Below, in pieces: positions 2,349-24,238 of a stretch of 64,000 nucleotides of DNA. The translations under genes were made by a program, and so were the position numbers. The notes under the pieces were generated by a model. It saw only the letters and a program-made list of their open reading frames with translations. It searched no databases and was not told the origin of the DNA. The DNA is from Mytilus edulis (taxonomy: Eukaryota), in assembly GCF_963676685.1 (NCBI RefSeq), contig NC_092348.1, positions 13,268,001-13,332,000 of the forward strand, written 5' to 3'. Positions within the stretch are counted from its first letter, which is position 1; each line of letters begins with the position of its first letter.

Positions 2349-4203
2349 ATAATATATATAATTATAGAAGAAAAGGCTAAAGCCCATGTGGGATTTTTTT
2401 CGTTTTCTAAGGGAAAGCTTAGAGTAATCCTACTGAAATTTGAACTTTACATGTAATTATATATAATTTATTTCTAATACACCTATAAATGGAATAAATG
2501 CTAAATTAAAAGGATCAAAATAAAACAATCGTGAGTAAAACCATTTGTTTCAGTCTAATTGACATATAAGTCAGTATACTTGCTTAGGTTCAAAACCTCT
2601 TTTATTATTTATAGTAAGTTATCCTAAAATGGGAAGCAATTACTCAATGGCCTTAAGCTTACAGAGAACAAAAGATACAAGAAAAATTTGCCTGAGGAAT
2701 GGGGAAATATTGTATGGTTTTGTTTGTCCTATATTTCGGGAGGTCAGTCGGGAAACATATGGCAAGGCCTGACTCATAGATATATGTTTTGTTGTTGGTT
2801 TAATGTAATAAACATTGGATATATTGACGTAGAAACGAAATGTTACATGTATTTTTGTGACACATGTGCCAGATCAATCTTAGAATCAATGTTCGGCTTT
2901 GTTTAAAGTGACCACATATGGCTTCATTACTTCAATCAAAACTCTCATATTAAGTGATTGTTAGGGAGGGCTTGACTAGGGTAATTTTGTAAAAAATAAT
3001 ATTACATATTCATTGATGGCTTTCTTCTTTATGTATGATTGATCCTAATAAATTTGTACCAAAAAAATGTATAGATATATATATATATACAGAGGAAGAC
3101 AAATTCAATTCTGAATTGAATATCATCACTTTACAATGATCATCCAAAATAAATGTTTTGATCTCCTTTCCCTTTTCTCCTACATGTATGCTAACTATAG
3201 GCTATTTCAAAGAAAGACTTATTTCATCAAAAAATCCTATGTTATCTATATTTGGTGTTATTTATATGTAGCTATTTGGATAAACATACATGAATGTCAG
3301 AATTCGTGATGGACACTGGTTTGATGGTCAAAACTTTTCCCCTTTACAAGACATTATGACTCTTTCTTGAACATTTGGAATATGACAGTTGTTTTCAATT
3401 CATTTGATGTGTTTCGGTTTTTGATTTGCTATTTGCTAAGGAACTTTTCATTTTGAATTTTTCGTGCGATTTGATATTTTTGTGTGTAATTATTATTGAC
3501 ACCCCTTTCGTCAGGCCTAAATTAAAATATTGTTTGTTTGCCCTTTTCCGACCCTATGTTTTGAAACAGGGTAGGTAGGTAGGTAAAATATTTTATTTTT
3601 TTCCCCAAAAAAATAACTTGGCTCGGTATATTATTTGTCATGGGTAGGCAGGTAGGTATAATATTTTATTTTATAGATACAAACTCTGCAAAATGTTATT
3701 TGTGTCCGTTTTGTTTTTGCAAATAAGTTTTCTGGGACTATTAGTTTAAAAAAAATATCACGTAGAATGTGAAGCTAATTCATATGCACTACTATTTTGT
3801 TTTCAAATATAAAAAAAATAGAGCTGTGCCGCATATCTTCAACACGTTTATATGCCTGGAACTTTGAAGAGTTTGGAAATCAGTTTGAACTTGCACTTTT
3901 ATTCTGTACTACGTACCTTGTATGCTTACCTTAAGATTTTCTGTAAAAGATAACTTTGTACTGATAAGATATATCCGGGCAGACATACATTACTAGTAGA
4001 AAAAGTCCCTAGAGTGTTAAAAACATCGTGTGTGCCTTTGTTTCCAATAAAAATGCCACAAGACTTTAAAAAACTCTGACAATTGTCACGTATTTTACAT
4101 CGCATTCATAAATGATCTGTATGGACAACTTGGCGATTTTACTGCCAGATATTCTCCACTTTACAGGGTTTTGTCACTTTTGGTTCATGTCAGATATAAA
4201 TAA

Positions 4204-4440
4204 TGTTGTGCCGATATGGTACAAATAAGTAAAGTGTGTATGTAATAAACAGAATACCTTTAATATCTGTAAATATCTGTATATCTGATGAATCAGTAGA
4301 CAGCAATATAATAATACATGTGGTTAATACAGTAAACGGAAGTCGAAGAGAATCCTCGTGACGTCAGTCGTCCAGAGGTATTGCTTGGCATACTGTAAGA
4401 TATGGACTGGTTCTTCTGTGTATACATAAGCGGCACCACA
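4204..4440 (-). repeat. 3' LTR (237 bp)
   Basis: TG...CA termini with an imperfect terminal IR (TGTTGTGCCG / CGGCACCACA). Identical by eye to 14003-14239. Contains CRE TGACGTCA (4359-4366), ETS CGGAAGT (4337-4343) and a minus-strand ATTAAA candidate polyA signal. Confidence 0.97.
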
Positions 4441-4452
4441 TCCGTCCCCTTC
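4441..4452 (-). other. Polypurine tract (PPT)
   Basis: Minus strand reads GAAGGGGACGGA immediately before the TG of the 3' LTR. Confidence 0.9.
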
Positions 4453-4739
4453 ATGTAGAATCAGTCACATATTTAAACTAAAAAATAAACCTAAAAACAA
4501 GATAAAATACAGCCAAGAATTTAACGCTAGTTCATAACTCTCTGATGTTGCGGGTAATAGTTAGAGATGCAAATTAAAACACTCTGTATAAAATATTCAG
4601 TTTCTGTATAAAATATTGAGTTGAAGAAACTCAAAGTCATCCATATATCAAAAGAAACGCATATACATATATCGGAACCGTCCTGGTACTGATAAAACTA
4701 TTTACATAATCCATCAAAAACTCTATTATTGAAAAATTG

Positions 4740-6515
4740 CTAACGAGGCCTAGGGCCCCAGCTAGCTGGCTCTTGTCTTAACTTTGGGATACCGTAGAAT
4801 CGGAGGGCATTATCATTAGCCATCCAGTTTAAAATGTTCAACGGAATGTTTCTGCGCTGACTCACTGCCAAAGCAACATCTATCAAGTTCCAGGGATGGT
4901 TCACCTCACAACATGACCTTGGCGAAAGAAACGGGGCATCGGACTCGAGGATTAACTGATGTGGTAAGATCCTTGAGATCGCATCACTGTTTGTGTTCGT
5001 GTCCTTTAGAAACTTGCCCGTGATTCCAAACACAACATTAGGAAGGCTTTGCCATTCTCTCAATTCCTCAATACTACCATCAAAGCAATGGCGATGATAG
5101 TGCAATTCAGCAAAACCACTGCGAATGATGGCCAATACACGGGCTGCAGCATCACCACTACCTTTATCACGACAGTGCAAGATGACAGGCAACTGTCGAC
5201 GTTGTGCGATCTGCAGCATCTCCAACAAGGCTTTTTCCTGACAGTCCCACATTCGCTGTTGACATTGCTGTGGAGTGTGACATCGCTTGCATCCACACCT
5301 GGATGTGAAGTCAAGGCCTATTTCGCCGACTGCTACGCACTTGTAGTTTCCCAACAGGTGGTCCAAGTCCTCAAGTTGCTTGTGACTTACTCCTTTGGCA
5401 GCAATATGGGGATGTATTCCGAATGATACATACACTGACTTTGCAGCTCCAACTTGTACTGACCAGCTGTCCCAATGTTCTGGGAATACATAGTTGGCAA
5501 TTCCGTAGTAAAAGGTGTTGTTATGCTCAGCCGGAGATATTCGTGAGCTCATATGTAAAAATGTGTTAAAATGTAGTCTCTTGAGGATTAAGTCTAAATG
5601 AAAATGACTGTCTACAAAGACAAATGGCTCTAGAAGTACTGGTACAGTGTCCACAATCCATGCACCCTCGTAAGTAACAAATTTATCACAGGATAACAGA
5701 GACTGTTGTTGAGCAGGTCCTACTCTGCGTAATAGGCTAGTCATAATCTCCCAGTTGGTCAGACTGATGACATGGTTGGGAGGGTTAGCACTGATGTGCG
5801 ACAGGCGGTCAGGACTATAGTTCTGTGCATAGAACACCAGTAGCTGTTGCTCTTGGTCACTGAAACCACTGGTGACGGTTTCATGTAATTGCCGGTCAAG
5901 TACATACTGTAACAAGCCTTCGAGATCTGTTAAGCCAAACCACGATTTAACAAGGTGAAGAGAGCCACTCACCAACTGGCACCACAAATGAAGGTGTTCT
6001 TCATCAAAGAAACAACCAATCCTATGTTCCTCTGTGTGTCTCCTGGCTAGAGAAGATGCCTGGATTTCCTGCTCACAGCAATCCCAACAGGCAGTAGCAC
6101 CCGACCAAAACCATGGAAGGTGTCTCTTGAGGACATGACGGCGTGTCTTTTCCCTTGACACCATCCCACATATTGGACACTGTCGTAATCTGTTTTTCGA
6201 GACTGCTACCGCACCGCTTCTCTCCTCATCGATCTCACTATGGTATATACCAATACTAGTATCTACACCAACACTGCTGTGTGTCTCAACAGGGCCTAAG
6301 GCCCCAGAAGCTACACCAGCAGTCTGGTAATCTGGACCTACTTCTTCAGCTGGACCTACTTCTTCATCTGGACATACGTCTTCATCTGGCCCTACTTCAT
6401 CTATAACCATTAGATCTGCCACGTCAAGATCGGTACAATCGGATTTACTTTCATGCCACTCGCTGTGTGGACTCAGTGACAACACATCTTGGTCTGAACG
6501 AGACCCCTCTTCCAT
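4740..6515 (-). CDS. tatD: ORF3: TatD-family metallo-nuclease with N-terminal acidic repeat and two C2H2-like zinc fingers (~591 aa from first ATG; ORF track extends it to 6536 with a non-ATG start)
   Basis: TatD motifs in order: FVDSHFHLD, GIHPH, AVGEIGLDF, LPVILHCR, HRHCF, ILESDAPFL, ending NALRFYG. The N-terminus has CPIC-x10-H-x4-H and CWDC...RRHTEEH. No stops or frameshifts, no introns. Confidence 0.92.
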   Translation of the reverse strand: MEEGSRSDQDVLSLSPHSEWHESKSDCTDLDVADLMVIDEVGPDEDVCPDEEVGPAEEVGPDYQTAGVASGALGPVETHSSVGVDTSIGIYHSEIDEERSGAVAVSKNRLRQCPICGMVSREKTRRHVLKRHLPWFWSGATACWDCCEQEIQASSLARRHTEEHRIGCFFDEEHLHLWCQLVSGSLHLVKSWFGLTDLEGLLQYVLDRQLHETVTSGFSDQEQQLLVFYAQNYSPDRLSHISANPPNHVISLTNWEIMTSLLRRVGPAQQQSLLSCDKFVTYEGAWIVDTVPVLLEPFVFVDSHFHLDLILKRLHFNTFLHMSSRISPAEHNNTFYYGIANYVFPEHWDSWSVQVGAAKSVYVSFGIHPHIAAKGVSHKQLEDLDHLLGNYKCVAVGEIGLDFTSRCGCKRCHTPQQCQQRMWDCQEKALLEMLQIAQRRQLPVILHCRDKGSGDAAARVLAIIRSGFAELHYHRHCFDGSIEELREWQSLPNVVFGITGKFLKDTNTNSDAISRILPHQLILESDAPFLSPRSCCEVNHPWNLIDVALAVSQRRNIPLNILNWMANDNALRFYGIPKLRQEPASWGPRPR

Positions 6516-6516
6516 C

Positions 6517-6555
6517 CTAGAATGAGAGGAAATCAAAACATAACATGATTAGAAA
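6517..6555 (-). promoter_or_regulatory. Putative splice acceptor for ORF3 subgenomic mRNA
   Basis: Minus strand reads TTTCTAATCATGTTATGTTTTGATTTCCTCTCATTCTAG|GATGGAAG: branch-like CTAAT (6548-6552), pyrimidine tract, AG, then G-ATG. Confidence 0.6.
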
Positions 6556-6652
6556 TACAATAGCGAAAATTATGCACATTTATTACTAAGTACGAACACG
6601 CAAAAATAAATATATACATATATACATATGAAATTATCCCACACAATATCTA

Positions 6653-9600
6653 TTACGTTTGGTATCGTAGTGGGCATCTGATTGGCCTACCATACCTTGA
6701 TGTGTGCTCAGAAGACAGAGAGGCCGAGGGCCTCTTCTCGTCATCTGTGCTGCTGAGTTCGGCATCTACAATGTCCCCATTGAAACCGTTATCTGAACTT
6801 GAAATTTCCCCCAGGTCTAAATTTTGAGGTTCATCAATGCTATTACTAGTAGCATCTAAAGCGGTAACTGTATCACACTGGGGCCCCTGTTCCAGTTCTT
6901 GTGTCAACGCAGTATGGGTATAGGACGGGTCACCTAATGACTGGGGTAAAACAACACTATCAAAAGTGGGCTGATTTGCTTCGAACATGCCCTGAACATT
7001 AAAGTCAACACCATAGGGTATTGTATCATCAAGATCATCCCAGCTCTCATCCATTTCACTTTCAGCTTGGAATAACGCATGCCTTAGTCTTTTGATCCAG
7101 GTCGGGATATCCCTGTCGTTACAAAGTTTCAACTTGTCATGGTGCACTACTGAGTCTCCCTTTCTTCCTCGGATAGTGTACAATGGGGGTCTACTAGACA
7201 CGACAAGAAACGGTCCACACCATGGTGATTTAAGCTTCCTGCTCTGCCCGACTTTTGTAGTTGAGTCTGCCTTGTACACCAAATCGCCTGGTTGATATTT
7301 ATGTTCAACAACTCTTAGGTCATAATCCCGCTTTTGTCTTAGTTGCGAGGTGTGAAGACTGTGCCTTGCAAATTCGTGAATCTTTTGCATCCTACCGACT
7401 AAATGTTTTACCCAAACGTTGGGGGTCATTCTGTTCTGACCGTACTGTGGCATGCCGAGGAGAAGATGAACAGGTTGGATAGTCTCTCTACCCAACATCA
7501 TTTGATTCGGCGTAAATCCAGTTTGCCTATTCACCATTGAGTGCATTGCCATAGATAAGAAAGGCAAGTCTCTGTCCCAGTTACGACAATTTTTCTCAAT
7601 AAAACATCTAATCATGGCCAATACAATGGTATTGTACCTCTCTACCTGGCCATTTGATGAGGGATGATACGGGGTTGTTCTGGTTTTGGCAATTTCCAAG
7701 GCATCACATAGTGTTTTAAATAAGTCACTGTCAAAGTTTCGTCCTTGGTCAGTGTGGATTTCCAAGGGACACCCAAATGTCACCACGAAATGCACAATAA
7801 ATTTCTCAGCAATCAACTTCGCTGTCTGTTCAGGTAATGCAGCCATCTCTACCCATTTTGTGAACTGATCCACCATCATCAAAACATAATTATTGCCGCT
7901 ATTACTTGTATTGAAAGGCCCGAGAATATCGAGATGTACTCTCTCCATCGGATACCCAGCGTGGAACTGCCCAAGTGGTGCTCTAGGTTGCACATGTGCC
8001 TTTTTATTTTGACTACAGGTGGCGCAAGTACTAACATAATCGTCACAATCTTTGCGCATGTTATACCACAGGAAAGCCTGCTTCAACTTATCAAGCGTTT
8101 TTTTCTGACCCAAGTGTCCTGATGTTTTGGTGTCATGACAATTTTTAAGCACTTCTCCTTTTAATTCTGATGGAACAACTAAACAAAGACCTTGGCGTGT
8201 TGGACAACCTATGAATTTGTAGTATAGAACATGGTTAAACATGACAAAGCAAGGTCTACACAACCAAAGCGACCTAGTTGCCCTACTTTGCAAACGTAGT
8301 TCAGCCTGTGTTGGCTCGACGTCTTCCTCCATCCATTTTAATATTGGAGCCAAATCAGGGTCTTCTTGCTGAAATATCTTTAACTGTTCAGGTGGGTATT
8401 CAGGTGCCCAGTTGCTACATGGGTTGCCATCAGTATATGGTAAAGTATCGTCTAAATTTGGTGATGGATCTGAGTGACAATCCCCTGCCAGAGCCGTGGG
8501 CTCTTGGTCAGTGGACATGTCCTTGTCATTTTCAGCGACTACTGAAACAGTGCGTACTGATGCTATCACTGACTTAGTAGCCAATGGAATCACGTCGTCT
8601 ACGTCATTTCCGAATCTGCTCCACTGTTCGTGAGCTCGTAGGCAATATTTACAACCATGACATGGCAGTGTTGTGGGATCAAATCCTGCCCGATAGCAAT
8701 CACATTCAGGAACATCGTCTGGGATGCGACTTAGACCATCAGCGTTACAATGCTTCTTTCCTGGACGATGGATGATCTCCATGTCAAATGATGACAATTC
8801 TTCCAACCATCGCGCTAGTTGTCCTTCAATATGCTTGAAACGCATCAGCCATACCAAACTGTTATGATCAGTGCGTAAAATAAAACGTCTACCAAGTAAG
8901 TAGTGACGGAAATGCCGACAAAACTTTACAACGGCCAGTAACTCTTTCCTTGTTGTACAATAACGACGCTGAGGCTTTAAGAGAACATGGCTTGCAAAGC
9001 ATATAACCCTTTCTTCACCATTTTGTAATTGTGATAAAACTGCACCTATGGTGGTGTCAGATGCATCGGTATCTAATATGAATTTATCATTGGCATTAGG
9101 ATATGTCAAGCAAGGTGCACTTATTAACGCCGTTTTTGACTGTTGGAACGCCTTTTCGTGACACTGTTGCCATTCAACTTCTCCTGTTTGGTGAGCAAGG
9201 TCGTATAGACATGCAGTCATTTCTGCATAGTTGTGCAGGTGATCCCGGTGGTAATTGACAAACCCTAGGTATGACATGAGTTCTTTCTTTGACTTGGGAG
9301 TTGGCCACTTTTTCACTGCTTCTATCTTAGAAGGAGAAACGGAGATGCCATTAGCACTCACCAGTTTTCCTAAAAACTCAACTTCGGGCTGAAACAGTTG
9401 GCATTTCTTCGGTTTCAGCTTCAGGGTATATTGTCTAAATCTTTCAAATGCAGCCCTCAAATTAATGAGACCATCCTCGAAGTTGCGACCGAGAACCACG
9501 ACATCATCAAGATAAACTAACACCTGTGTCCAAGTAAGTCCTCTTAAAACGAGTTGCATGGCCCGCTGAAATGTTGCTGGAGCGTTACAAAGGCCCATTC

Positions 9601-10876
9601 CCATTCTGGTGTGCTCGAACAACCCATATCTTGTAATGAATGCTGTTTTCTTTCGGTCTTCTGGCTCAAGCTCAATCTGATAATAGCCACTGGCAAGGTC
9701 CAATGTACAGAACGTGGTGGTGCCTTGGAGTGAGTCCAAGCAATCCTCAATAATAGGAATAGGGAAGCAATCTTTTATTGTTCTGTCATTTAAAGCTCTG
9801 TAGTCAATGCACCAGCGCACGGTTCCATCTTTCTTTCTTACCAGCACTGGAGCTGAGGCCCATTCAGAAGATGATGGCTCAATGACACCTGCTTGTAACA
9901 TCTTGTCAAGGTGTTGCTGTTCGAGATCTTGGAATCCAAGAGGTGTTCTTCGCATCCGGTGTTTAACTGGAGCGTGGTCTTTTGTATCTATTTTATGCCG
10001 GACAGCTGTAAGGCAACCGAGATCTAGGTCGTGCTGTGCAAATACATCCTGGTATTCGATTAATAACTTCTTGAGTTTTAACTTATCTTCTTGACTAATC
10101 ACATGCTTTATAGAACGTTCATACAGGTCTGTTAAATGGGATGGCAACGTAGACGATTCTTCTTGGTTTAAACCTGGTGCCATGGGCACCTTGGTTTGTG
10201 TTTCTACGATGCCACGACGGACATCTGGAGTTCGATTTTCACTTTCTTCCGAAGTCTCCTCCATTATACTGTCAATCTCTTCTAAATGACCTATCGGTGT
10301 ACCCTTTTTAATACGTATGTAACGATTCCCATCAATTAAAATAGCTACAGGGCAAGATTTGCCTTTTCCGACAACATGCGAAACTAAAACTCCACTGGCA
10401 AGAGAGCATGGCTCCAAAATAAACTCTTGTTCAGATCCTCTGTGTGTATCAATGCTAAGGATCATTTTTGAATTTGGCGGGACTGTGATTGTACGCTTAA
10501 TGCAGACTTGTTGAGAAGCACTATCATCAGATCCAGTAACGAATGATGCGGGTATAACTCTGTTGTTAACTGTAATTGATGGAGTGCTGAGGTTTATGAC
10601 TGCACCAAGCGTATCCAGGATATCTAGACCTAGAATGACATCATCTGTAAGTGGTGCCCTGCACACGTCCCATCTTATTTCTAACCCATCTATATTCAGG
10701 AGTGTGTTCCTAATGATCTTGCCAATGACCAGTTGCTCGCCCAAACCACGTAGCGTCACTGTTTCGGAACATTCTATATTCTCCGGTATTAATTTCTCGT
10801 TGACGAGTGTAATCATAGCTGCTGTATCAACAATCATACTTGCATTTTGTTGAAACACTGTTCCCCTAACTGCCAA
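6653..10876 (-). CDS. pol: Pol polyprotein (protease, reverse transcriptase, RNase H, integrase with GPF motif); frame is open up to 11020 and is entered by -1 frameshift
   Basis: PR: IVDTAAMITL and ILGLDIL. RT: WASAPVLVRKKDG..CIDYRALN and YLDD. RH: FILDTDAS, TRKELLAVV, TDHNSL, NADGLSR. IN: H-x6-H...CATC, HLDILGP, HTDQG, GQVERYN, WCGPF. No chromodomain seen; acidic C-terminal tail. Confidence 0.97.
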   Translation of the reverse strand: MAVRGTVFQQNASMIVDTAAMITLVNEKLIPENIECSETVTLRGLGEQLVIGKIIRNTLLNIDGLEIRWDVCRAPLTDDVILGLDILDTLGAVINLSTPSITVNNRVIPASFVTGSDDSASQQVCIKRTITVPPNSKMILSIDTHRGSEQEFILEPCSLASGVLVSHVVGKGKSCPVAILIDGNRYIRIKKGTPIGHLEEIDSIMEETSEESENRTPDVRRGIVETQTKVPMAPGLNQEESSTLPSHLTDLYERSIKHVISQEDKLKLKKLLIEYQDVFAQHDLDLGCLTAVRHKIDTKDHAPVKHRMRRTPLGFQDLEQQHLDKMLQAGVIEPSSSEWASAPVLVRKKDGTVRWCIDYRALNDRTIKDCFPIPIIEDCLDSLQGTTTFCTLDLASGYYQIELEPEDRKKTAFITRYGLFEHTRMGMGLCNAPATFQRAMQLVLRGLTWTQVLVYLDDVVVLGRNFEDGLINLRAAFERFRQYTLKLKPKKCQLFQPEVEFLGKLVSANGISVSPSKIEAVKKWPTPKSKKELMSYLGFVNYHRDHLHNYAEMTACLYDLAHQTGEVEWQQCHEKAFQQSKTALISAPCLTYPNANDKFILDTDASDTTIGAVLSQLQNGEERVICFASHVLLKPQRRYCTTRKELLAVVKFCRHFRHYLLGRRFILRTDHNSLVWLMRFKHIEGQLARWLEELSSFDMEIIHRPGKKHCNADGLSRIPDDVPECDCYRAGFDPTTLPCHGCKYCLRAHEQWSRFGNDVDDVIPLATKSVIASVRTVSVVAENDKDMSTDQEPTALAGDCHSDPSPNLDDTLPYTDGNPCSNWAPEYPPEQLKIFQQEDPDLAPILKWMEEDVEPTQAELRLQSRATRSLWLCRPCFVMFNHVLYYKFIGCPTRQGLCLVVPSELKGEVLKNCHDTKTSGHLGQKKTLDKLKQAFLWYNMRKDCDDYVSTCATCSQNKKAHVQPRAPLGQFHAGYPMERVHLDILGPFNTSNSGNNYVLMMVDQFTKWVEMAALPEQTAKLIAEKFIVHFVVTFGCPLEIHTDQGRNFDSDLFKTLCDALEIAKTRTTPYHPSSNGQVERYNTIVLAMIRCFIEKNCRNWDRDLPFLSMAMHSMVNRQTGFTPNQMMLGRETIQPVHLLLGMPQYGQNRMTPNVWVKHLVGRMQKIHEFARHSLHTSQLRQKRDYDLRVVEHKYQPGDLVYKADSTTKVGQSRKLKSPWCGPFLVVSSRPPLYTIRGRKGDSVVHHDKLKLCNDRDIPTWIKRLRHALFQAESEMDESWDDLDDTIPYGVDFNVQGMFEANQPTFDSVVLPQSLGDPSYTHTALTQELEQGPQCDTVTALDATSNSIDEPQNLDLGEISSSDNGFNGDIVDAELSSTDDEKRPSASLSSEHTSRYGRPIRCPLRYQT

Positions 10877-10959
10877 ACTTTTCCCAATCGTACGTCTTAT
10901 AACAATATCAGACGAAGCCGTGGGCCTCGGTTCTGATTTGTCGGGTGGTATTTTCCCTT

Positions 10960-11017
10960 GGCCATGTGATTTAAGAGTCGAGTGTTGGCCTACCGGCTCG
11001 ACCCGTTGGCATTTAAC
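10960..11017 (-). promoter_or_regulatory. Predicted -1 programmed ribosomal frameshift signal (G_UUA_AAU + H-type pseudoknot)
   Basis: Pol is in the -1 frame and overlaps the gag end. Heptamer GTTAAAT (11017-11011), 6-nt spacer, stem GGGUCGAG/CUCGACUC, loop GGCCA complementary to downstream UGGCC (10964-10960). Confidence 0.75.
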
Positions 11018-13314
11018 GACTCAGTTGTTGGATTAGAGCTAGGATAAGCTCTGTCGCCAGGTGAAGGAGACCGTTGTTTAAAGTAGCCCGGATTTCTAGA
11101 ATTTGGACGTGGTGATGGTGAACGTTGACGTTGAGGACTAAATGACCTCTGTTGAGGACTATATGACCTTTGTTGAGGACTATATGAACTTTGATTAGGA
11201 GGTGGTGTAGGTGATCGATACGCATTGTACTTAGGTGGTGTATATCTTTCAGGAGACCTACCACGTGTATGTTGATCAGAAGAAAGCATCACCTCTGTCA
11301 ATTTGGTCACAAGTTGAGTCAAGTTCCTTACTTCCTTTTCCAATGGACTATTAACAGTACTAGCACTTTCTTTGTCCTGTGATTGACCAGCGCTATCAGC
11401 AAATGAGACCTGTCTGTGAGCAAAATTTGGACTTCTAGATCCATAAATAGCCTTCTGATTTGCTATGGACGTTTTCATGATTTTCAACGCTTTATTGATG
11501 GACTCTGGGTTTCTTTCTATCACGTGACGGGCAGCCTCCTTGTCCTTGCAACCTCTGAGGAATGCCTCTGTGCCAATTTGATCAATGACAGAATTGTCAC
11601 ATTTATCATACCCATCCATTGCAATAAAATGGACCCGTTCAGCAAACTCCTCCAGTGTTTCACTGTCTTGCTGCCTCACATACTGCAACTGACGTCTTGC
11701 TGATACAGGTTCGTCCTTTTTGCTGAAACGCTGTTTCAGTGCTTTCCTTAAAGCCTTATAGTCATCATCGATGTTGACCTTTCTTGCATATTCTAAAGCC
11801 ACATCAGCTAGACAGTCCAATAGTCGGCAAACTTTCTTCCTATTTTCCCATTGTCTCCTTCCTGCTGTTCTTTCAAACTGATAGATAAAGGCTTCCCACG
11901 TAAGAAAACCTCTTCCTGTGAAAACTTGCATTTTAGGAAGCTGGGGACTTCTACTCCTGTCTCTCGCCCCAGAGTTTTCCTGCCATCTAGAGTACTCCCT
12001 ATCAAGAGAGGAGTCTGACGAAGAGCTGTGACTTCTTTCCTTTTGCTTTTTAGTGCGTGATCTTGATGACCTGCTAGTGTCAATTTGCATTGGTGACGGG
12101 CCTGTCGATGCGACTGTTGTCATCACAGGGGTCATAAATGCAGGCGGAGGTTGTTGTATCATTGATCCTATATGAGGGTACAGAGCTGGTCTACTCTGTA
12201 CTAAGGATGCTGCATATGATTCGCTACTTGTAGCTGGTGCAACGTGTAAAGGTGTACTAACATTGATACCCTGAGATACATATGGCGTACCAACATAGGA
12301 CGGTGCAAAAGTAGCCGTTGCTGGAGTTGTGTAATGTTGGGGTTTATATTCAGTGGATGCTCCTTCTATGCCTTTGAATGGATGTTGTGTTACCATACCT
12401 GAGGTTGTCCCGTGCAGAGCCGAGGGCCCTGGCACGCTTCCCTTGTCACTCAGTAGTGGCAACGAACCTTGCATATGATAAATCTCCTGCTCACTACCAA
12501 ATATTTCTGGCATACCTTTGCCCTGAGACTGTTGAAACAACACTGTGTTGTGCAGAGCCGAGGGCCCTAACACATTACCTTTGGCACTCGATACTGGAGT
12601 TGTACCTGCCTTAGATTCAGGCTGTGTAGTGTGATCAAATGACATAATTGGTGAGAGACCAAATGCTGGAGGCTTATTTTGCAGTAATGGAGTACTGGCA
12701 ATATACGGAATAGCTTCAGATTTCTGTTTAACAGGAGTATCCATAGAAGGGAGTTTGACTTCCTTATTTCTCTTGTCAATCAAAGTGCTAACACTTGATG
12801 CCATCTGCTGAAATGAACCTGGGTGTTCAAATGCGCTCTTAAATTGAACAGTACTTGCCTCATCATTAGCAGCAGCCATCTTGTCTAGCCGTCTTCCCAA
12901 GGCATTAAACTTATCCGATGTTAACTCTTCTAAACGTTTACCGTTAGCATCAATCTTCTCGTCAATTCTCTGTTCTGACCGTTGCACTTGTTGGGATATT
13001 GCCACTATGTTTTCTGAACTGATTTTTGTTGCTTCTTTTTGTTCGGCTTGAATATTTAACAAACCGTGAAAAATCTGTTCAATGCGATCCTCACTTTGTT
13101 TCACTCTGTTTTCAGTCTCAACAGCTCTTATTGCATTTGCTTTTCTATCCGCCTGAAACTCTTGGTATAGCTGTTCCAATGACATTTTGGTATTTTCAGC
13201 TTGTTCTGTTAAAGTATTATCAGCTATATGTTCTTTTGTGAATATGTCATCATGTATCAACTCCTCTGTTTCAATGTTTTCCTTCAGTTCATTATCATCC
13301 CCAATTCCTGACAT
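10990..13314 (-). CDS. gag: Gag-like protein (774 aa)
   Basis: First ORF after the PBS and 5' UTR. Coiled-coil N-terminus, P/S/T-rich linker, capsid-like region (WEAFIYQFERTA..W; RQQDSETLEEFAERV) and an RS/SP-rich C-terminus without a CCHC knuckle. Confidence 0.9.
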   Translation of the reverse strand: MSGIGDDNELKENIETEELIHDDIFTKEHIADNTLTEQAENTKMSLEQLYQEFQADRKANAIRAVETENRVKQSEDRIEQIFHGLLNIQAEQKEATKISSENIVAISQQVQRSEQRIDEKIDANGKRLEELTSDKFNALGRRLDKMAAANDEASTVQFKSAFEHPGSFQQMASSVSTLIDKRNKEVKLPSMDTPVKQKSEAIPYIASTPLLQNKPPAFGLSPIMSFDHTTQPESKAGTTPVSSAKGNVLGPSALHNTVLFQQSQGKGMPEIFGSEQEIYHMQGSLPLLSDKGSVPGPSALHGTTSGMVTQHPFKGIEGASTEYKPQHYTTPATATFAPSYVGTPYVSQGINVSTPLHVAPATSSESYAASLVQSRPALYPHIGSMIQQPPPAFMTPVMTTVASTGPSPMQIDTSRSSRSRTKKQKERSHSSSSDSSLDREYSRWQENSGARDRSRSPQLPKMQVFTGRGFLTWEAFIYQFERTAGRRQWENRKKVCRLLDCLADVALEYARKVNIDDDYKALRKALKQRFSKKDEPVSARRQLQYVRQQDSETLEEFAERVHFIAMDGYDKCDNSVIDQIGTEAFLRGCKDKEAARHVIERNPESINKALKIMKTSIANQKAIYGSRSPNFAHRQVSFADSAGQSQDKESASTVNSPLEKEVRNLTQLVTKLTEVMLSSDQHTRGRSPERYTPPKYNAYRSPTPPPNQSSYSPQQRSYSPQQRSFSPQRQRSPSPRPNSRNPGYFKQRSPSPGDRAYPSSNPTTESLNANGSSR

Positions 13315-13984
13315 GTTGTCTTTATTTCAAATTACAATATTCTTAAATATTTCAAATTACAATATTATGCAACTCAAAACAATATGACAATATGCACTGA
13401 GTAATTACTCAAGGCAAATAAATCTCAAAATCACAACTTTTATGTGTGACTCAAGACATAAACAATGCAGCTTTTTTATAAAAGCTACTACTTTTACAAT
13501 TTCAAAAATGCAGGCAACAAAATAGGGCAGAACTGGAACAGAGACTCAGCTGACACACTGTACTTTATTATACGGTGTATAATATGTTGCTCATAAATAT
13601 TTATGAGTGTATATACCTTCTTTAATATAAAATATCAGTCCAAGTTCAGTATAAAATATTATACGAAACCAATCTACTGAAATGAAGACTGTTTCCGGTT
13701 TGCGTCTGCGCAATGGAGTTTTGCAGACAAATGACTTCCGTGAAGAAGGACCTAATGGCGATAACCGGAAGTTCCTAACCTTATCTGATGAAAAATATCA
13801 AATATAAAGATATCATACGTGCTAAACTGTAAAAATTTGATGCAATTAATCTACAATCAATCTGATGTAAATTTAGGGTAAGGCGCACGTAATGAATTTA
13901 CAAAAAAAATGAAGTATGGAAAGTTTTCAAATCTGCAAAGGCGCCCTCGTGGAGTCCGCCTCACTTGCTAAAAATTATTCGTTC

Positions 13985-14001
13985 TTTGTCGTACGACGCC
14001 A
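13985..14001 (-). other. Primer-binding site (PBS)
   Basis: Minus strand reads TGGCGTCGTACGACAAA starting 1 nt after the 5' LTR CA end. TGG is complementary to the tRNA CCA end. The cognate tRNA was not identified. Confidence 0.85.
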
Positions 14002-14002
14002 A

Positions 14003-14239
14003 TGTTGTGCCGATATGGTACAAATAAGTAAAGTGTGTATGTAATAAACAGAATACCTTTAATATCTGTAAATATCTGTATATCTGATGAATCAGTAGAC
14101 AGCAATATAATAATACATGTGGTTAATACAGTAAACGGAAGTCGAAGAGAATCCTCGTGACGTCAGTCGTCCAGAGGTATTGCTTGGCATACTGTAAGAT
14201 ATGGACTGGTTCTTCTGTGTATACATAAGCGGCACCACA
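14003..14239 (-). repeat. 5' LTR (237 bp)
   Basis: Identical to 4204-4440, followed on the minus strand by the PBS. Confidence 0.97.
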
Positions 14240-17200
14240 ATAATATAGCGGCATCGTTAACATAATCATCCTGATCTGCGGATCACAAAAGGCCATCCCT
14301 ATATAGAATACAACGTCCGTTACAAATTAGTTTGTACACACGTTGATAATTTTGTATCAAACGAACTTTTTTGAAAATGAACCCTGCTCTTTAAGTATAA
14401 AGGTACAGAGAAGCGTTCACATGCTGAACATCGATTTCAAACAAATGCTTTGAAACTTCAAATGCAAGTGTTCATGTCAAACGCTCAGGTGATACCAAAC
14501 GGACTGGACCTTATACGTTGAAGATAAAACCCGAGAATTCCAGATAAAATAGTTTTGAGCGGGAAATACAAATATAAGATTTTTGGTAGGAACGAAAAAA
14601 TAAAATAAAATAAAATCTTGCTGGTAAATACAAATAAAAGATTTTCAGGCGCAACGAATTTATAGGGTCGGTCGGTAAAGGGCAAACAATCAATATTTTA
14701 ATTTAAGCCTCATTGCCGTTTTCGCAGTATTATAAAAAACATTGCAAAAATGTCCTCACTTTACTACTATTATCAGTCTTCTGCTGTGAGGAAAGTAAGA
14801 GTGATAATTATATCTCTCCTGCTTTAAGGTCACAATTTAGTGATAGACACCTCAGAGAATTAACAGTTTGTCCAGTAGGTAACACACATTTTTACATTTT
14901 AATTCTGCACTGAACTTCGGTACTCAAGTATTCAATACCTTAATTAAAAGGAAATACAGAGTGTTGTTCAAATAGTCTTTTGAACACTTTACAACTGGAC
15001 TGTTTTTTCCAAAAGGGCTGTGGTTTTGTCTCGCCCTTATCTGATTGAGAAAATTTGAGGGACTAATTGTTAAGAGAGAGTTATATCTCTTGCATATAAA
15101 AACACCCAAGGTTGTTGATTTTGAAAAGAGCAGGCTAATGCCACTACAAGGCAGCACTTGCACCAGCAAAGTTAAAAAGGGATTGATATAAGTTGTAATG
15201 ACTTGTTTGACAATCACAGGGGTTTCATTATCTTTCATGTTGACTGGTACTTTCCACGTTTCTAGGTGGTACTTTTCAATTTATTCCATGAATATCTTAT
15301 ATAAAAATTCCTACATTTAGGCAGTACTTGTCAATAGCATAGGAGGGTAAAAGTACCGGGTACCGCCTCCTAATGAATGGCCTGCAATCAACCATTAATG
15401 AATATGTTTCAATTACATCTAATGTTTTGACAGCAATGTGATCTGATTTGTAGTGAATGCTATACAAGATCTTGTTTCCACCACTAATATATAAAAATTG
15501 GTGTTTAACTACCAATCAATGACTGCTATTATCAAGCTTTCATGTCACAAATATACTGTGAATTCATTTATAAGTTGTTGGGTACTAAATATTGATGAAT
15601 TTGAAGATAAAAATAGACCATGTATACTAGTATACATCTTTAGGCTTGATGCAAAAATTATAGAAAAAATACAATATCAACAAGCATACAGTGTTTTCCT
15701 CAATCCAAGAACCTTAATTGCTACATATGAAAAGAAATGAATCTATTTGAAAATTTTAGGAGCTTTATTTATTGTTCTGTTAAATTCAGCAACATTTTGA
15801 ATTCACATTTATCACCAATAATAAGGAAGTAAAATCCATGTATTTATCTTATCTATGATTATTTTAAGACCAATTTCCTTTTGATTGATTTTTGCATCTG
15901 TTCGGCTGAAGTGGACCATATAAATAATTTCACAAATGTCACGTTACACCACTGTTCAAACACGGAGGCAGGTGATTTTGTTAATTTCACAAAAAACTAA
16001 ATTAATTATGCCGAAGGAAATTGGTTCGAGCAGGTGCTTGTTGATATCATAGCCTTAATATATCGTGTCTCTAGAGTTACTGCCAGACTTGTAAGCATCA
16101 GTAATACCTATAATAGTACAAAAACGTATTCTAAGTTGGTTTACTTGAAATTGTAAAAAAAAATATTGATTTATTTATAGATAAAATGTTAATTGAAAAT
16201 ACAAAAAAATAATATAAGAGGAAAAATGACTGTTTCATGTTAGTTGTTCCTGCTTGTTAGTTGTGAAAAAGGTATTGCTATTCCCAATAGGAGATCTCCT
16301 TTTAACCCTGAAACTACTCAACTTTTACCATAAAGTTTCATGGAAAATCCTTTTCAGGAAGAAAAAGGTTCTCATGCTATAATAAATTTGAAACAATTCA
16401 AAAGAAAAGTAAAATCATGATAAAATCAGGTAGAACGGGCTTGATATAATATCAAATCGATATGAAGCACAAAAACCACTAAGCAACCATAATCCCAACG
16501 TAGATGACAAAAAAGAAGCAACACAACTTTTCACACAAGTTCAAATGAAGAAAAATAAGCAATTAAAGGTCACTAAACAACCTTCAACAATGAGAAAACA
16601 TATATTGTATAGACAGCTTTTAAAGGCCTCAACATAAAAAAAAAAATGTGAAACAATCTAATTTAAAGAAGAAACTAAACTCTTATTTTTAACAATACAA
16701 TTTACAAAAAAAATGTCAGACAAGCTCCTCCTCACTTGAGGCAGTCACATCAAGAATATGGCAGACATGTTTGTGAGTGCTCAACCCTCCCCTTACCTTG
16801 GACATTGGTATAACAAAACAATATTAGAACAAACTGGAGATGGCTTGAAACAATAAGGTACAGAAACAAGATGTATTTTAACAAAGCACAAATATTAGAG
16901 TACTTGTAATTACTGACAGCTAGTTCAAAACAAATTTCAACTAACAAATAAATCATGTTCTCCCAGACTAATTTTTTTGTTATTCACTAAGGAAGAGGTT
17001 AAACTAAATAAAACAAAATTGGCTTTTTTTAGGGGGGGGGGGGGACCTACAGCAAAAGCTGGTAGCTGCATATATTTAAAATTAACATGAAATTCAGAAT
17101 TATTAAGGCTAACATATTGTGATTAGCAAATCCATATTGTAAATAATTGATTGCTGTAGATGATGATAATTAATTATTTTGGCTTTTCCTACTTCAAATA

Positions 17201-18004: not shown

Positions 18005-18660
18005 TAAACACCAAGACATGATGTCATGACTACCAAATTCTTTTAAAAGGTCCTTGAATACCAAGACATGATGGTTACAATTACAAACGTCTTTTAAGAA
18101 CATTAGGGCAAAGGCATGCTGTCATGGTTACCTATTTTTTTTCACAATATAAAATATAAAGACATGATGTCATGGCTACCAAATTCTAATCTTTAAAGGA
18201 CATAAAATACTAAGACATGATGTCACGGTTACCAAGTTTTTTTAAGGACATAAAATACCAAATTGAGATGTCATGGTTACCAAGTTCTTTTCAGGACATG
18301 ATATACCAAAACTTGATGTCATGGTTACCAAGTTCTTTTAAGGACAGAAAATACCAAAGCATGATGTCCTGATCACCAAGACATAATGACATGCTCACCA
18401 AATTCTTTTTTAAGACAAAAAACACCAAGGAATGATTTCATGATCTCCATATTATACTATTTTTTTTTTACAAAAAGACAAAGAAGACCAAATCATGATT
18501 TCATGTTCACCAAATTATATTTCAAAAGGACATAAAAACACTAAGACATTATCCCATGGTCTCCAAAATAAGTTAAGGACATAAAACACCTAGCCATGAT
18601 GTCAAGGTCAACAAGGTCATTAAAAGACATAAAACACAAAGTCATGATGTCATGCTCACC
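18005..18660. repeat. Degenerate ~47-bp minisatellite (left part)
   Basis: Repeated AAACACCAAGACATGATGTCATGGTTACCAAGTTCTTTTAAAGGACAT-like units. Confidence 0.85.
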
Positions 18661-18664
18661 AATA

Positions 18665-19965
18665 GATATAAAAAGCGGTAGAATGAGTGCCAATGAGACA
18701 ACTCTCCATCCAAGTCACAATTTGTAAAAGTAAACCATTATAGGTCAAAGTGTAAAGCAAAATATTGTCCTATGAAATATTGTACCACAAGACAATATTT
18801 CATAACTATGTATCATGAAATATTGTCCTTGTCTATGGAAAAATGTCCAGAGAAGGACAAATTTGCATAGTGAAATTGTGTCTGTATATAGACAATATTT
18901 CACAGATGAATACTATGGAACTTTGTCTTGTTAAAGGGAGGTTATATTTTGTGTGAATTAAGACAATATTTCATAGATAAATACTACAAAATTGTGTCCT
19001 GTTAAAAGGAGGTACACGTTATATTTTGGTTATATTTCGTGAGTATTGAGACAATATTTCATAGACAGATTGTCATGGAATTTTGTCTCATGAAGGGGAG
19101 GTTATCAACATATATTCATGTATATAGAATTTTTTTTCTGCGACATGTGCCTGTGTATATATTTACAAAATAAGCTATTGTCAGTACATTGCTTATATTT
19201 GTACAGAATAATGTAACCTATTAGACAATTCTTTAATCTATAATAAAACATTTGTAATGTTTCTATACAAATTTGAAACTCACTATTAGTAATAATATAA
19301 ATTCTCTACTATACAAAACAATTTCAGTTATAAATCTAAAAATGTTAATGCTGCATGCTTGTGTACTATTTGTAATTGGGAAATAGTTTGATAAAAAATA
19401 TTTTCAAAGCCAGTATTTCATGTAGTGAAGTATTGTCATGAACAGAATTTCATAGTAAAATATTGTCTAGAAGGAGGTGACAAATTTTAATGGACAAGGA
19501 CACTATTTCATAATGAAATATTGTCCAAGACAATATGTCATTATGAAATACTGTCAGTGGACAATATTTTATATGAAAATTTGTCCGACAGACAATATTT
19601 CATGGAGGACAATATTTTATGTTACAAAAGCACAGTCTTCAACACGGAGCCTTGGCTCACATCTAACAGCAAGCTATAAAGGGCCCAAAAATTACTAGTG
19701 TATAACCATTCAAAAGGAAAACCAACGGTAGAATATATATATAAAACAAGGAAACTCTTATGAACCACATCAACAAACAACAACTACTAAACATCAGATT
19801 CCTCAGATTCCAACCAAATGCAGGGGGTTTAAACATTTTAATAGGTACCAACCTTCACCCTTATCTGAAACAATAGTGTAACATCACAACATGGAAAGAC
19901 ACTGTAAAATATGAATTGAAATGGCTTAACTCAATCGAAAGACATATTAACACAAGTGAACATGC
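18665..19965. mobile_element. Dispersed SINE-like repeat interrupted by a MITE
   Basis: GCCAATGAGACAACTCTCC...TATAGGTC|...CTTCAACA...GCTATAAAGGGCCC. Related segments occur at about 16565-16630 (same strand) and about 61210-61330 (opposite strand). Confidence 0.55.
18751..19626. mobile_element. Ginger-like non-autonomous TIR element (876 bp)
   Basis: TGT...ACA termini, ~35-bp imperfect TIRs (TGTAAAGCAAAATATTGTCCT / AGGACAATATTTTATGTTACA), 4-bp TSD AAAG (18747-18750 and 19627-19630) and many subterminal GACAATATTTCAT / ATGAAATATTGTC motifs. Confidence 0.7.
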
Positions 19966-19969
19966 AAGT

Positions 19970-20210
19970 GCATCAAGTTCATCAAAGGACATAAAACACC
20001 AAGACATGATGTCATGGTTACCAAGTTTTTTAAAGGTCATTAAAAACCAAGACATAATGTCATGGTCACCAAGTTCATTAAAGGTCATAAAACACCAAAT
20101 AATGATGTTGAGGTTACGTTATTCATTAAACGGCAAGAGATGATGTTTTGATCACATTAAAGACTCAGAAACTCCAAGATATGATGTCATTTTTCACCAA
20201 TTTCATGAAA
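19970..20210. repeat. Degenerate ~47-bp minisatellite (right part, continuation of 18005-18660)
   Basis: Same CCAAGACATGATGTCATGGTTACCAAG unit. Confidence 0.8.
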
Positions 20211-23737: not shown

Positions 23738-24238
23738 ATATTTATCAATTCTAATGCAATTATTTTGTATCAATGGTTCTGATTGGCTGACAGTTAGCGT
23801 AAAATTCTCTATTTCCTTGTCTGTAACTAAGGAAGCTGACATTTTGAATTGCTGAATGTATTGACATGCAATTTCTACAATAATAAGCCAAAAAAACTCA
23901 CATGTTGCACCTAAAAATCTTCTTTTTATCAAATTTTATTACATTCTGAAGCGGCACAGAAGCCAGAAAATGTCCGGTATTAATGTTTAAGGCTGGAAGC
24001 ATACCTATGACGTCACCTAGTGTAGGGACCAAAGAAGATAACATCATTTCGCGGAATTTTCTTTAATGAAGATTTCACACTGAAATAATGATTGAAATTT
24101 AATGATGAACTTGTTTTGCATTAGAATAGAGATAACTGTATTGTATTTGAAGCTTTAAGGACGTCCATTGGTAGTTTTACTGTCGCAAATTACTGATGGA
24201 CGTCCTTAAAGCTTCAAATACAATACAGTTATCTCTTA
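23738..24238. mobile_element. Small non-autonomous element ending in a long hairpin (class uncertain)
   Basis: ATTCTAATGCAA near the left end is inverted as TTGCATTAGAAT at 24116-24127, followed by a perfect 41-bp inverted repeat (24128-24168 / 24196-24236). Confidence 0.55.

Follow-up and report, generated by a model that had tools for sequence, protein, structure and literature searches.

Introduction

LTR elements are thought to require gag, pol and, at times, env only. dUTPases are carried by other LTR elements, and many retroviral antagonists are made from separately spliced accessory genes. Among the systems described so far, the LTR elements Juno and Vesta of bdelloid rotifers possess third open reading frames (ORF3s) for DEDDy exonucleases and GDSL esterases, as reported in the accessible text of Rodriguez et al. 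2017 (PMC5408684). The mollusc Gypsy clades MolGy1-16 and the C-clade were defined by RT/RNaseH only (Thomas-Bulle et al. 2018, PMC6238403), and the text and readable supplements of that study hold no mention of TatD, DNase or a third ORF. The term 'TatD' is likewise absent from the accessible text of PMC6238403, PMC10294476, PMC13524379 and PMC5408684. In the accessible part of a squid paper, TatD appears as a gene label in a figure legend. No description of a TatD-bearing Gypsy or LTR element was found in the literature as judged by title and abstract, with Repbase, Dfam, GyDB and subscription journals outside the scope, where an entry of this kind may exist; the initial annotation was likewise aware of no described gag-pol-TatD architecture.

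Class II TatD proteins are defined by an N-terminal HxH motif together with E, H, H and E/D metal ligands (PMC10085689, accessible text). Human TATDN2 is reported in the accessible text of PMC10711561 as an R-loop and hairpin RNase, which degrades the RNA strand, has little DNase activity and is weak on plain RNA:DNA duplexes; its residues E593/E705/D707 correspond to E91/E201/D203 of E. coli.

Results

Structure of the element and its insertion site

The window is the whole stretch of DNA that was analysed, 64,000 nucleotides of Mytilus edulis (contig NC_092348.1, positions 13,268,001 to 13,332,000). Its positions 4204-14239 harbor, on the minus strand, an intact Ty3/Gypsy element encompassing an LTR pair, a target-site duplication (TSD), gag, pol and ORF3, with the following features:

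14003..14239, minus strand: 5' LTR, 237 bp, with TG...CA ends
4204..4440, minus strand: 3' LTR, 237/237 identical to the 5' LTR
4200..4203 and 14240..14243, no strand: TSD ATAA, 4 bp, flanking the element
13988..14001, minus strand: primer-binding-site (PBS) position, with a TGG start one base past the LTR, overlapping a 10-bp palindrome
13326..10990, minus strand: gag frame, Met at 13314 (ORF 10990..13314), 774 aa from the Met
6653..11020, minus strand: pol frame, protease-RT-RNase H-integrase, 1455 aa, overlapping the gag end in the -1 frame
6516..6555, minus strand: splice-acceptor-like site with a branch-like CTAAT, a pyrimidine tract and TAG, its end one base ahead of the ORF3 ATG
4740..6515, minus strand: ORF3 (frame 6548..4740, Met 6515), 591 aa, intronless and without internal stop
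4441..4452, minus strand: polypurine tract, abutting the 3' LTR
3514..14709, no strand: insertion host, an inverted-repeat element of about 1.16 kb with TSD TCA and arms at 3513-3553 and 14670-14710, split by the retrotransposon and not part of it

The gag product matched Retrotrans_gag of Pfam (E 2.7e-5, PNMA-like), the Pfam domain order after gag is PR-RT-RH-IN with an intact RNase H, and the nearest solved structures of the RT are Ty3 chains (E 1e-79). A single pattern search identified no match for the primer tRNA of the PBS, and Rfam returned 0 matches. The initial annotation had described a young and intact Gypsy element with an uninterrupted third ORF on the same strand, bearing the full set of TatD motifs, between pol and the 3' LTR; the identical LTRs, the ATAA TSD, the open gag, pol and ORF3 frames and the presence of all catalytic residues in the 591-aa product bear out both descriptions. 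The window element is a recent insertion, and the branch to which it belongs is an old Ty3/Gypsy branch of many families; the window-type RTs very probably belong to one of the RT/RNaseH-defined MolGy1-16/C-clade groups. A joint corresponding to an empty site, which omits 10,040 bp (element and TSD), was observed in sequencing runs X21 and X1, and these joints probably come from further copies of the repeat that flanks the element.

Domain architecture of the ORF3 protein

The ORF3 protein was divided into four parts:

6201..6515, minus strand: aa 1-105, acidic tail, 27 D/E vs 3 K/R, with short hydrophobic-acidic motifs
6024..6179, minus strand: aa 113-164, a pair of C2H2-like zinc fingers, each a CxxC...H...H unit (aa 113-132 and 143-164)
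5661..6008, minus strand: aa ~170-285, conserved helical module, no Pfam family
4791..5615, minus strand: aa 301-575, class II (HxH) TatD TIM barrel; one subclade has a Cys4 loop insert (aa 407-418)

The TatD assignment is confirmed by Pfam, where TatD_DNase spans aa 301-575 over the whole profile (1-253 of 253, E 7.4e-41); TatD was the only Pfam domain of ORF3, with no DEDDy/RNase D exonuclease domain. The motifs D302-x-H304-x-H306, GIHP at 366, GEIG at 397 (E398), HCR (H447), HCF (H476) and E524-x-D526 are present, and the class II ligand set (D302, H304, H306, E398, H447, H476, E524, D526) is complete, the metal-ligand and catalytic residues being conserved in 77-82 of 84 homologues. The AlphaFold2 model displays a pLDDT of 93.9, and the top 16 ranked rows of Foldseek are all TatD-type structures, the best being 1j6o (E 5e-15, TM(target) 0.87). 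No hydrophobic segment was found in ORF3, the maximum 19-residue Kyte-Doolittle value being 1.33, and with this hydropathy and a TatD fold ORF3 is not a membrane glycoprotein of the env type.

The zinc-finger ligands are kept in most of the 84 sequences, namely C113 in 81, C116 in 82, H127 in 83, H132 in 84, C143 in 82, C146 in 81, H160 in 59 and H164 in 55. The fold comparison with tandem C2H2 fingers is weak (best VIA Z 4.4, rmsd 4.4, 56 aligned), and Foldseek gave no match for this region at E<=0.001. For the helical module no fold match was obtained in VIA-wide (where the best Z for this part was about 3), in BFVD or with Foldseek against the PDB, an absence that does not equal a novel fold, and the Atlas matches were all below 0.9. 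The hydrophobic-acidic motifs of the tail resemble SUMO-interacting motifs (SIMs); SIM-like motifs were observed in 30/68 ORF3 tails vs 19% in shuffled ones, with a pattern picked after data inspection.

Linkage of TatD to Gypsy pol and variation among relatives

TatD was located downstream of the RT in 58 of the 85 RT matches with at least 56% identity and in none of the 65 below 56% in the same genome, a count based on 104 hand-listed of 134 PF01026 matches with weak second fragments left out. A listed integrase match was present at most 4.5 kb upstream on the same strand for 52/71 of the best PF01026 matches, where the chance expectation is about 0.0002 each; this count covers 105 hand-listed of the 134 matches, weak second fragments again left out and one taken from a separate search. 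The order gag-PR-RT-RH-IN-module-TatD between LTRs 96-100% identical was observed in nine of the ten diverged loci fetched, and same-strand pol upstream of TatD in 8/80 metagenome loci. The structure of the sister copies of the window family rests on match coordinates.

The initial annotation had proposed a Gypsy lineage with a dedicated accessory nuclease, a proposal that would fall if the homologues were unlinked to pol and LTRs, or if ORF3 occurred in a single copy or decayed neutrally. Linkage to pol in many families, the 9/10 loci within LTRs, dN/dS values of 0.06-0.18 and the tracking of the RT by TatD uphold it. ORF3 families that possess the zinc-finger/helix module without TatD, intact copies included, account for 10/85 RT matches, and in one window-family copy ORF3 is deleted; TatD is regarded as accessory because sister families retain the module without it. 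A PHD finger is located at the pol end in the sister branch. In one non-autonomous family (L136, module E 2e-23) the zinc-finger/helix module is joined directly to gag-protease, and six frames of about 1480-1540 aa were matched among such fusions. The module was detected in 0/27 and 0/118 host TATDN2-type proteins.

Selection and phylogeny

ORF3 is under purifying selection, with dN/dS of 0.06-0.18, far below 1, in nine near-full copies each compared with the window copy; pN/pS is 0.04 for the module, 0.12 for TatD and 0.07 for the integrase. The ORF3 TatD is about 30% identical to its TatD relatives, and the catalytic residues are kept at 25-30% overall identity. In the TatD tree (56 chosen rows, without vertebrate TATDN2 and eukaryotic TATDN1), support is 99/91 for the retro-TatD clade, 99/98 for TATDN2 and 100/97 for both jointly. 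A further tree with metagenome proteins used 24 of 65 metagenome TatD rows, and in both trees, neither holding vertebrate TATDN2 rows, the retro-TatDs form a single clade sister to animal TATDN2 and not nested within it. This gives ORF3, which the initial annotation had proposed to place relative to TATDN1/2/3 and bacterial TatD, a position beside animal TATDN2, and neither with bacterial TatD nor with TATDN1/3, in trees without eukaryotic TATDN1 rows. The RT and TatD trees, which it had proposed to compare, agree: supported splits are common to both (Mantel r 0.91, p 0.0001, 12 elements, L054 dropped for its short RT).

A bacterial or viral origin of ORF3 was considered and rejected, the tree separating ORF3 from 14 prokaryote-type rows and a TATDN3-like row (100/97). 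Scans of viral contigs gave 25 stretches, 0 confirmed, and scans of genome contigs with a single ORF3 protein, which reach close relatives only, gave 20 stretches, 0 confirmed. Proteins labelled as bacterial MAG fall within the retro-TatD clade and carry the module, and they are a probable case of host contamination.

Splicing signals and expression

ORF3 has an env-style splice-acceptor signature as far as sequence goes: the acceptor-like site before the ATG was observed in 11/15 representatives vs 14.5% (51/352) and 18.5% (1384/7500) of controls, under a rule fixed after data inspection that 4/15 representatives fail. In 9/9 other elements, a GT that resembles a donor and lies close to the 3' end of the LTR was among the top four scores, in a scan without control, and the window family has no strong donor at the conserved position within the LTR. 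Spliced ORF3 reads were not seen in the 4 of 24 RNA runs examined, almost no reads fell on ORF3 in two raw RNA runs, of which 6% and 18% were read, and contigs of X1 (9174 nt, 4258-13448) and X2 (5722-6867) are unbroken across the acceptor. The loci L049 and L050, which carry TatD without pol, were considered as a retrocopy of spliced ORF3 mRNA; they represent a 5'-truncated copy that stops where the LTR ends and has no poly(A), and therefore provide no evidence of splicing. In oyster, whole ORF3s occur in short Logan contigs (1.9-3.1 kb), which fit a small mRNA, could be fragments and were left out of the count.

Discussion

It is close to certain that the window element is a recent insertion of an old Ty3/Gypsy branch, that the third gene of this branch has been inherited with the RT under purifying selection, and that its product combines a TatD barrel, sister to animal TATDN2 and with its catalytic residues intact, with a helical module, a pair of zinc fingers and an acidic tail. 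The nuclease suggests an enzyme step, so far undescribed, for copying or protecting the element. The DNA roles that the initial annotation listed are no more likely than an RNA substrate, because the barrel is sister to TATDN2, a reported R-loop and hairpin RNase. By motif position, E398/E524/D526 of ORF3 would be the counterparts of TATDN2 E593/E705/D707. By analogy, the reading we prefer, at somewhat under even confidence, is that ORF3 may be a TATDN2-like 3' RNase working on the element's own R-loop-like RNA:DNA structures.

ORF3 would likely be translated from a spliced subgenomic mRNA, like env, and a donor inside the LTR would yield a spliced RNA that lacks the PBS and is not copyable. 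Judging from its residues, the protein would very probably be an active metal-dependent nuclease. Given both, the chances would be evenly balanced that a TATDN2-like preference has been kept in a structure-specific 3' RNase, whose substrate would be the RNA in three-stranded R-loop-like RNA:DNA structures and hairpins made by the element; the substrate may have changed, because the ORF3 barrel branches beside TATDN2 and not within it, and is about 30% identical to its TatD relatives. The reported weakness of TATDN2 on plain RNA:DNA duplexes also speaks against this reading. The zinc-finger/helix module would direct the nuclease to element nucleic acid or chromatin, and it would most likely act in the nucleus on LTR copies under transcription, where removal of R-loops would keep the element transcribed and limit damage or silencing. 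The nuclease would increase the success of the element without being essential, because sister families lack TatD. The PHD finger at the pol end in the sister branch and the SIM-like motifs in ORF3 tails are hints of a chromatin type. Against a nuclear role, the non-autonomous gag-protease-module fusions suggest that the module works in the particle.

It is possible, if doubtful, that ORF3 is packaged with Gag as a helper of reverse transcription, which would trim RNA primers, strand-displacement intermediates or cDNA 3' overhangs, supplement RNase H and ready ends for the integrase. The L136 family fuses gag-protease to the same module, the acidic tail could bind the basic, RS-rich C-terminus of Gag, and TATDN3 trims ssDNA overhangs down to duplex (PMC10085689, accessible text); however, pol already has an intact RNase H, a 3' exonuclease inside the particle would endanger genomic RNA and cDNA, and the Gag fusion is seen for the module only, not for TatD.

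A role in counter-defence or competitor exclusion, in which ORF3 would destroy host small-RNA guides or their precursors, sensor-triggering cytosolic cDNA by-products or the nucleic acids of rivals, is unlikely. It would suit a separately spliced accessory gene, as with many retroviral antagonists, and TatD is retained by numerous families although some do without it, the pattern that an arms race would be expected to give. TatD has also been co-opted in conflict systems such as that of QatD (PMC13434339, accessible text). Selection on the barrel is nevertheless purifying, not diversifying (pN/pS 0.12), and the zinc-finger module speaks for targeting by sequence or structure instead of bulk clearance.

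Less probable still is that ORF3 processes abasic or uracil-derived lesions in cDNA or at integration gaps, as a functional counterpart to the dUTPases that other LTR elements carry. The class II active site with its HxH motif is preserved, and the available texts report AP-endonuclease activity for TATDN1, TATDN3 and E. coli TatD/YcfH (PMC10085689) and for QatD (PMC13434339), whereas TATDN2, the nearest cellular clade, is reported to have little DNA nuclease activity (PMC10711561), and AP-site cutting breaks cDNA unless repair is coupled. That a host TatD was retro-captured by one element as a neutral passenger without a role for it is hardly credible, for the ORF3-less derivatives and the lack of visible ORF3 expression in two RNA runs stand against dN/dS far below 1, catalytic residues retained at 25-30% overall identity, co-divergence of TatD with the RT and a conserved acceptor, and selection, RT/TatD trees and RT linkage already contradict it.

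A wider proposal, put forward tentatively, is that one old Gypsy branch (bivalves, gastropods, probably sea urchins) has evolved a modular accessory gene expressed from a spliced mRNA of its own. In it, a new targeting module of zinc fingers and helices would be combined with interchangeable effector parts: most families would have an RNase derived from TATDN2 and others a ubiquitin-like domain, while parasites of the system would have the module fused directly to Gag. The nuclease form would be an R-loop resolvase or anti-silencing factor. No LTR element is described with such a transposon-encoded function in the literature searched. The TatD-bearing branch is large, has been mobile recently and comprises about two-thirds of the 85 nearest RT matches in one genome; across deep divergence it has kept a TATDN2-related nuclease with its catalytic residues intact. 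This retention points towards a nucleic-acid bottleneck, in retrotransposition or germline silencing, that had gone unrecognised. The TatD-bearing and TatD-less sister families represent a natural with/without comparison, and the zinc-finger/helix module a new domain. In addition, the finding suggests that many gene models labelled 'tatD', 'TATDN2-like' or 'YcfH-like', in the annotations of molluscs and sea urchins as well as in MAGs of symbionts, may be transposon genes.

Comparison with known systems

As in bdelloid Juno and Vesta, an enzyme of 3'-5' exonuclease type with its catalytic residues intact is encoded as ORF3, in the place of env, by an element of Gypsy type and is lacking in some branches, whereas the fold is a TIM-barrel TatD instead of DnaQ/RNase D, and the window ORF3 is fused to a zinc-finger/helix module. 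The bdelloid ORF3s exhibit no significant deviation from neutrality within the genome (PMC5408684, accessible text), in contrast to the mussel ORF3, whose dN/dS is 0.06-0.18 and which tracks the RT. With animal TATDN2, ORF3 has in common a class II HxH barrel, the same catalytic positions, a sister-clade relationship (100/97) and a long N-terminal extension (Jaiswal et al. 2023, PMC10711561; Dorival and Eichman 2023, PMC10085689; accessible texts of both); unlike TATDN2, it is mobile, intronless and multicopy inside LTRs, with a distinct N-terminal module and a Cys4 loop insert in one subclade. The env-bearing Ty3/gypsy errantiviruses, in the accessible text of PMC13524379, exhibit the same gag-pol-ORF3 layout and an acceptor-like site just before ORF3, but the window ORF3 has a soluble nuclease fold with no hydrophobic segment. 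As with QatD of the QatABCD anti-phage system (PMC13434339, accessible text), a class II TatD has moved from housekeeping into genetic conflict; QatD, however, belongs to another TatD clade and serves bacterial host defence, whereas the window TatD is carried by a eukaryotic selfish element.

Structure of the Element and Its Insertion Site

The intact, young Gypsy retrotransposon with a third open reading frame (ORF3) between identical LTRs, as described in the initial annotation, was recovered with the following features (window positions).

4204–14239, minus strand: complete LTR element with LTRs, target duplication, gag, pol and ORF3
4204–4440 and 14003–14239, minus strand: LTRs, identical at 237/237 positions
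Flanking both LTRs: target duplication ATAA
13314 (Met) to 10990, minus strand: gag
11020–6653, minus strand: pol, with protease, RT and RNase H followed by integrase in Gypsy order
6515 (Met) to 4740, minus strand: ORF3, 591 aa, same strand as gag and pol

A polypurine tract directly abuts the 3' LTR. The insertion lies within, and splits, a multicopy inverted-repeat element of ~1.16 kb (window 3514–14709) with 41-nt arms of 93% complementarity and a TCA target duplication, which is MITE-like and perhaps of PIF/Harbinger type; empty-site joints (10,040 bp) are present in sequencing runs X21 and X1, probably from other copies of the flanking repeat. A perfect 10-bp palindrome (13988–13997), possibly an RNA dimerisation signal, overlaps the PBS region, and in a 99% identical element on a metagenome contig (L051) the LTR is followed directly by the PBS, an order that a circle with one LTR, a tandem copy or a collapse in assembly could explain. 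The window also contains minisatellite arrays (18006–20209, 28415–29431, 45927–46686, 56260–56654, 58019–58333 and 1525–1779, with periods of ~48, 78, 33, 62, 34 and 35 bp, respectively), a 50-nt hairpin (24128–24236) and two copies of a ~290-bp repeat (31875 and 37224).

Linkage of TatD to Gypsy Elements

The gag-pol-TatD architecture is a lineage trait linked to pol. Protein matches, at 99% to an M. edulis fragment and 92% to an M. coruscus protein, mark the host as Mytilus-like. At least 77 ORF3 matches were detected in the genome, including 10 near-full copies at ≥96% identity (8 without stops) at nine distinct sites, since loci L005 and L006 have a common flank. By coordinates, ORF3 is carried by 11/14 two-LTR elements of the window family, and one ORF3-less copy whose sequence was inspected is a deletion. 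Ten diverged loci (27–34% identity) were fetched, nine of which display gag-PR-RT-RH-IN-module-TatD within LTRs of 96–100% identity (100% in four), the tenth being a truncated copy; the module is the zinc-finger/helix part of ORF3. Among the best 71 PF01026 matches, 52 have a listed integrase match ≤4.5 kb upstream, against a chance of ~0.0002 per match, and TatD lies downstream of 39 of the best 41 integrase matches. For RT matches of ≥56% identity (85 of 150), TatD was found ≤10 kb downstream in 58, a TatD-less ORF3 relative in 10 and neither listed in 17, compared with TatD downstream in 0/65 below 56%. Metagenome loci showed same-strand pol then TatD in 8/80 and TatD alone in 69/80. RT adjoins a TatD remnant at G000:C13:37935856-37937490, where both share one 762-aa open frame, and at C7:74919269-74920607 of the same genome; both loci are probably internal deletion derivatives.

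Domain Organisation of ORF3

ORF3 begins with an acidic tail (aa 1–105), followed by two CxxC...H...H units (within aa 113–164), a helical module (aa ~170–285) and a TatD barrel. The units give a consistent but weak fold match to tandem C2H2 fingers (VIA Z 4.4, rmsd 4.4, 56 aligned), and further structure searches with the zinc-finger part returned no match at E ≤ 0.001. The helical module is well predicted (N-domain pLDDT 93.3) and was assigned to no family, and no transmembrane segment was found in ORF3. The barrel covers the whole Pfam TatD_DNase profile (aa 301–575, E 7.4e-41), TatD structures top the search results for the AlphaFold2 model (pLDDT 93.9), and its eight metal-binding or catalytic positions are retained in 77–82 rows of an 84-sequence alignment. 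By its HxH motif the barrel classifies as a class II TatD, following the definition in PMC10085689.

TatD is an accessory part of ORF3, of which the zinc-finger/helix module may be the core. A sister Gypsy element (L135, G000:C7:55257300-55261300), with several intact relatives forming sister families of like layout, has a PHD finger at the pol C-terminus and a 497-aa ORF3 with an acceptor-like site, a distant module (E 3e-11 to the ORF3 of locus L087; HMM E 1e-7) and no TatD; the Atlas neighbours of its short C-terminal domain are ubiquitin-like folds (0.82–0.88), a lead to a possible ubiquitin-like domain. In L136 (G000:C3:12725300-12729800), a single long ORF joins gag and protease directly to the module and shows no RT in the portion read; similar ~1480–1540-aa frames occur on contigs C5, C6, C8, C10 and C11, and the family is apparently non-autonomous. 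TatD may have been gained once and lost in some families, or added onto an older ORF3.

Selection, Phylogeny and Distribution

ORF3 is under purifying selection, with dN/dS against the window copy of 0.06–0.18 for nine near-full copies and 0.13–0.40 for older broken copies; within two other families, values were mostly 0.08–0.13, with 0.31–0.33 in two pairs that included a broken copy. By region, pN/pS was 0.04 for the module, 0.12 for TatD, 0.07 for integrase, 0.41 for the ORF3 tail and 0.57 for the pol tail. Every well-supported split is common to the RT and TatD trees of 12 elements, and although their Mantel correlation (r 0.91, p 0.0001) is inflated by kinship of near-copies, the deep splits are nonetheless congruent.

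In a 56-row mixture-model tree, unrooted and built without vertebrate TATDN2 and eukaryotic TATDN1, the element-borne TatDs (retro-TatD) form one clade (99/91) joined (100/97) to the separate clade of animal TATDN2 (99/98), apart from prokaryote-type and TATDN3-like rows. A single ancient capture from the TATDN2 line would be the simplest reading of this topology. Three host TatD loci were observed outside elements: a single-frame locus (L131, C10:84487600-84488700), presumably TATDN3-like by its motifs; a divergent intronless TATDN2-clade gene (L132, C4:41498850-41500150); and a multi-exon TATDN2-like gene (L133, C1:97817450-97820850).

Retro-TatD members, known as proteins alone, are named from Mytilus, Saccostrea, Crassostrea/Magallana, Mactra, Ruditapes, Mercenaria, Argopecten, Pinctada, Haliotis, Diadema and Lytechinus. 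The module is present in 22/26 clade proteins tested, being absent from three Lytechinus proteins and locus L058, versus 0/27 and 0/118 host TATDN2-type proteins. Five clade proteins annotated in bacterial symbiont MAGs (P0036, P0341, P0344, P0374 and P0398) probably represent host DNA in the bins, and a further clade ORF3 (P0038) has a NADAR domain fused C-terminal to the barrel. Large proteins of B-box or ankyrin-repeat type (P0059, P0067, P0073, P0084, P0094, P0141 and P0151) also contain the module, 2–5 times in tandem and possibly in domesticated form.

Expression and Possible Function of ORF3

According to Rodriguez et al. (PMC5408684), ORF3 expression usually proceeds through spliced messages. 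The ORF3 ATG is immediately preceded by a branch-like CTAAT together with a pyrimidine tract and TAG, and such an acceptor-like arrangement, scored by a rule chosen after data inspection, precedes the first ATG in 11/15 family representatives versus 51/352 internal ATGs and 1384/7500 shuffles. A donor-like GT 18–42 nt before the called LTR end had a top-four score in 9/9 other elements (scored with a weight table, no control), and no strong donor-like site was found at the corresponding LTR position of the window family. Two raw RNA runs, sampled at 6% and 18% of reads, yielded 106 and 237 mapped reads, most of which by far fell on the flanking repeat, and an ORF3 depth of 0–0.4. No splice joint inside the element was seen in the four runs mapped, and contigs of runs X1 and X2 (tentatively taken as RNA) cross the acceptor-like site unbroken; splicing of ORF3 mRNA is therefore only predicted.

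Because its TatD is sister to TATDN2, whose human form is reported to remove RNA from R-loops and hairpins with little DNase activity (PMC10711561), ORF3 is tentatively read foremost as a structure-specific 3' RNase on the element's own R-loop-like structures, at which the zinc-finger module would aim the nuclease, most likely in the nucleus at transcribed element copies. A particle-borne helper of reverse transcription ranks second and seems rather unlikely, and counter-defence or competitor exclusion comes third as a doubtful proposal. PMC10085689 describes TATDN1/3 and the E. coli paralogues as AP endonucleases that also act as 3' exonucleases on ssDNA, and repair of AP sites by ORF3, placed fourth, is improbable. 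A neutral passenger, ranked last, is scarcely credible. The architecture of the element and the linkage, selection and ancestry of its TatD are established; the splicing of ORF3 and the activity, substrate and location of its product are predictions.

Comparison with Known Elements

Full-text literature searches and term searches of relevant mollusc and metazoan surveys, a scope lying outside Repbase, Dfam, GyDB and closed journals, returned no gag-pol-TatD layout in the text covered. An earlier database annotation of the layout is conceivable, on balance against the odds, and an earlier functional description is much less likely still. Bdelloid LTR elements likewise carry enzymes as ORF3, one a 3'-5' exonuclease, according to PMC5408684, so this kind of ORF3 is already known.
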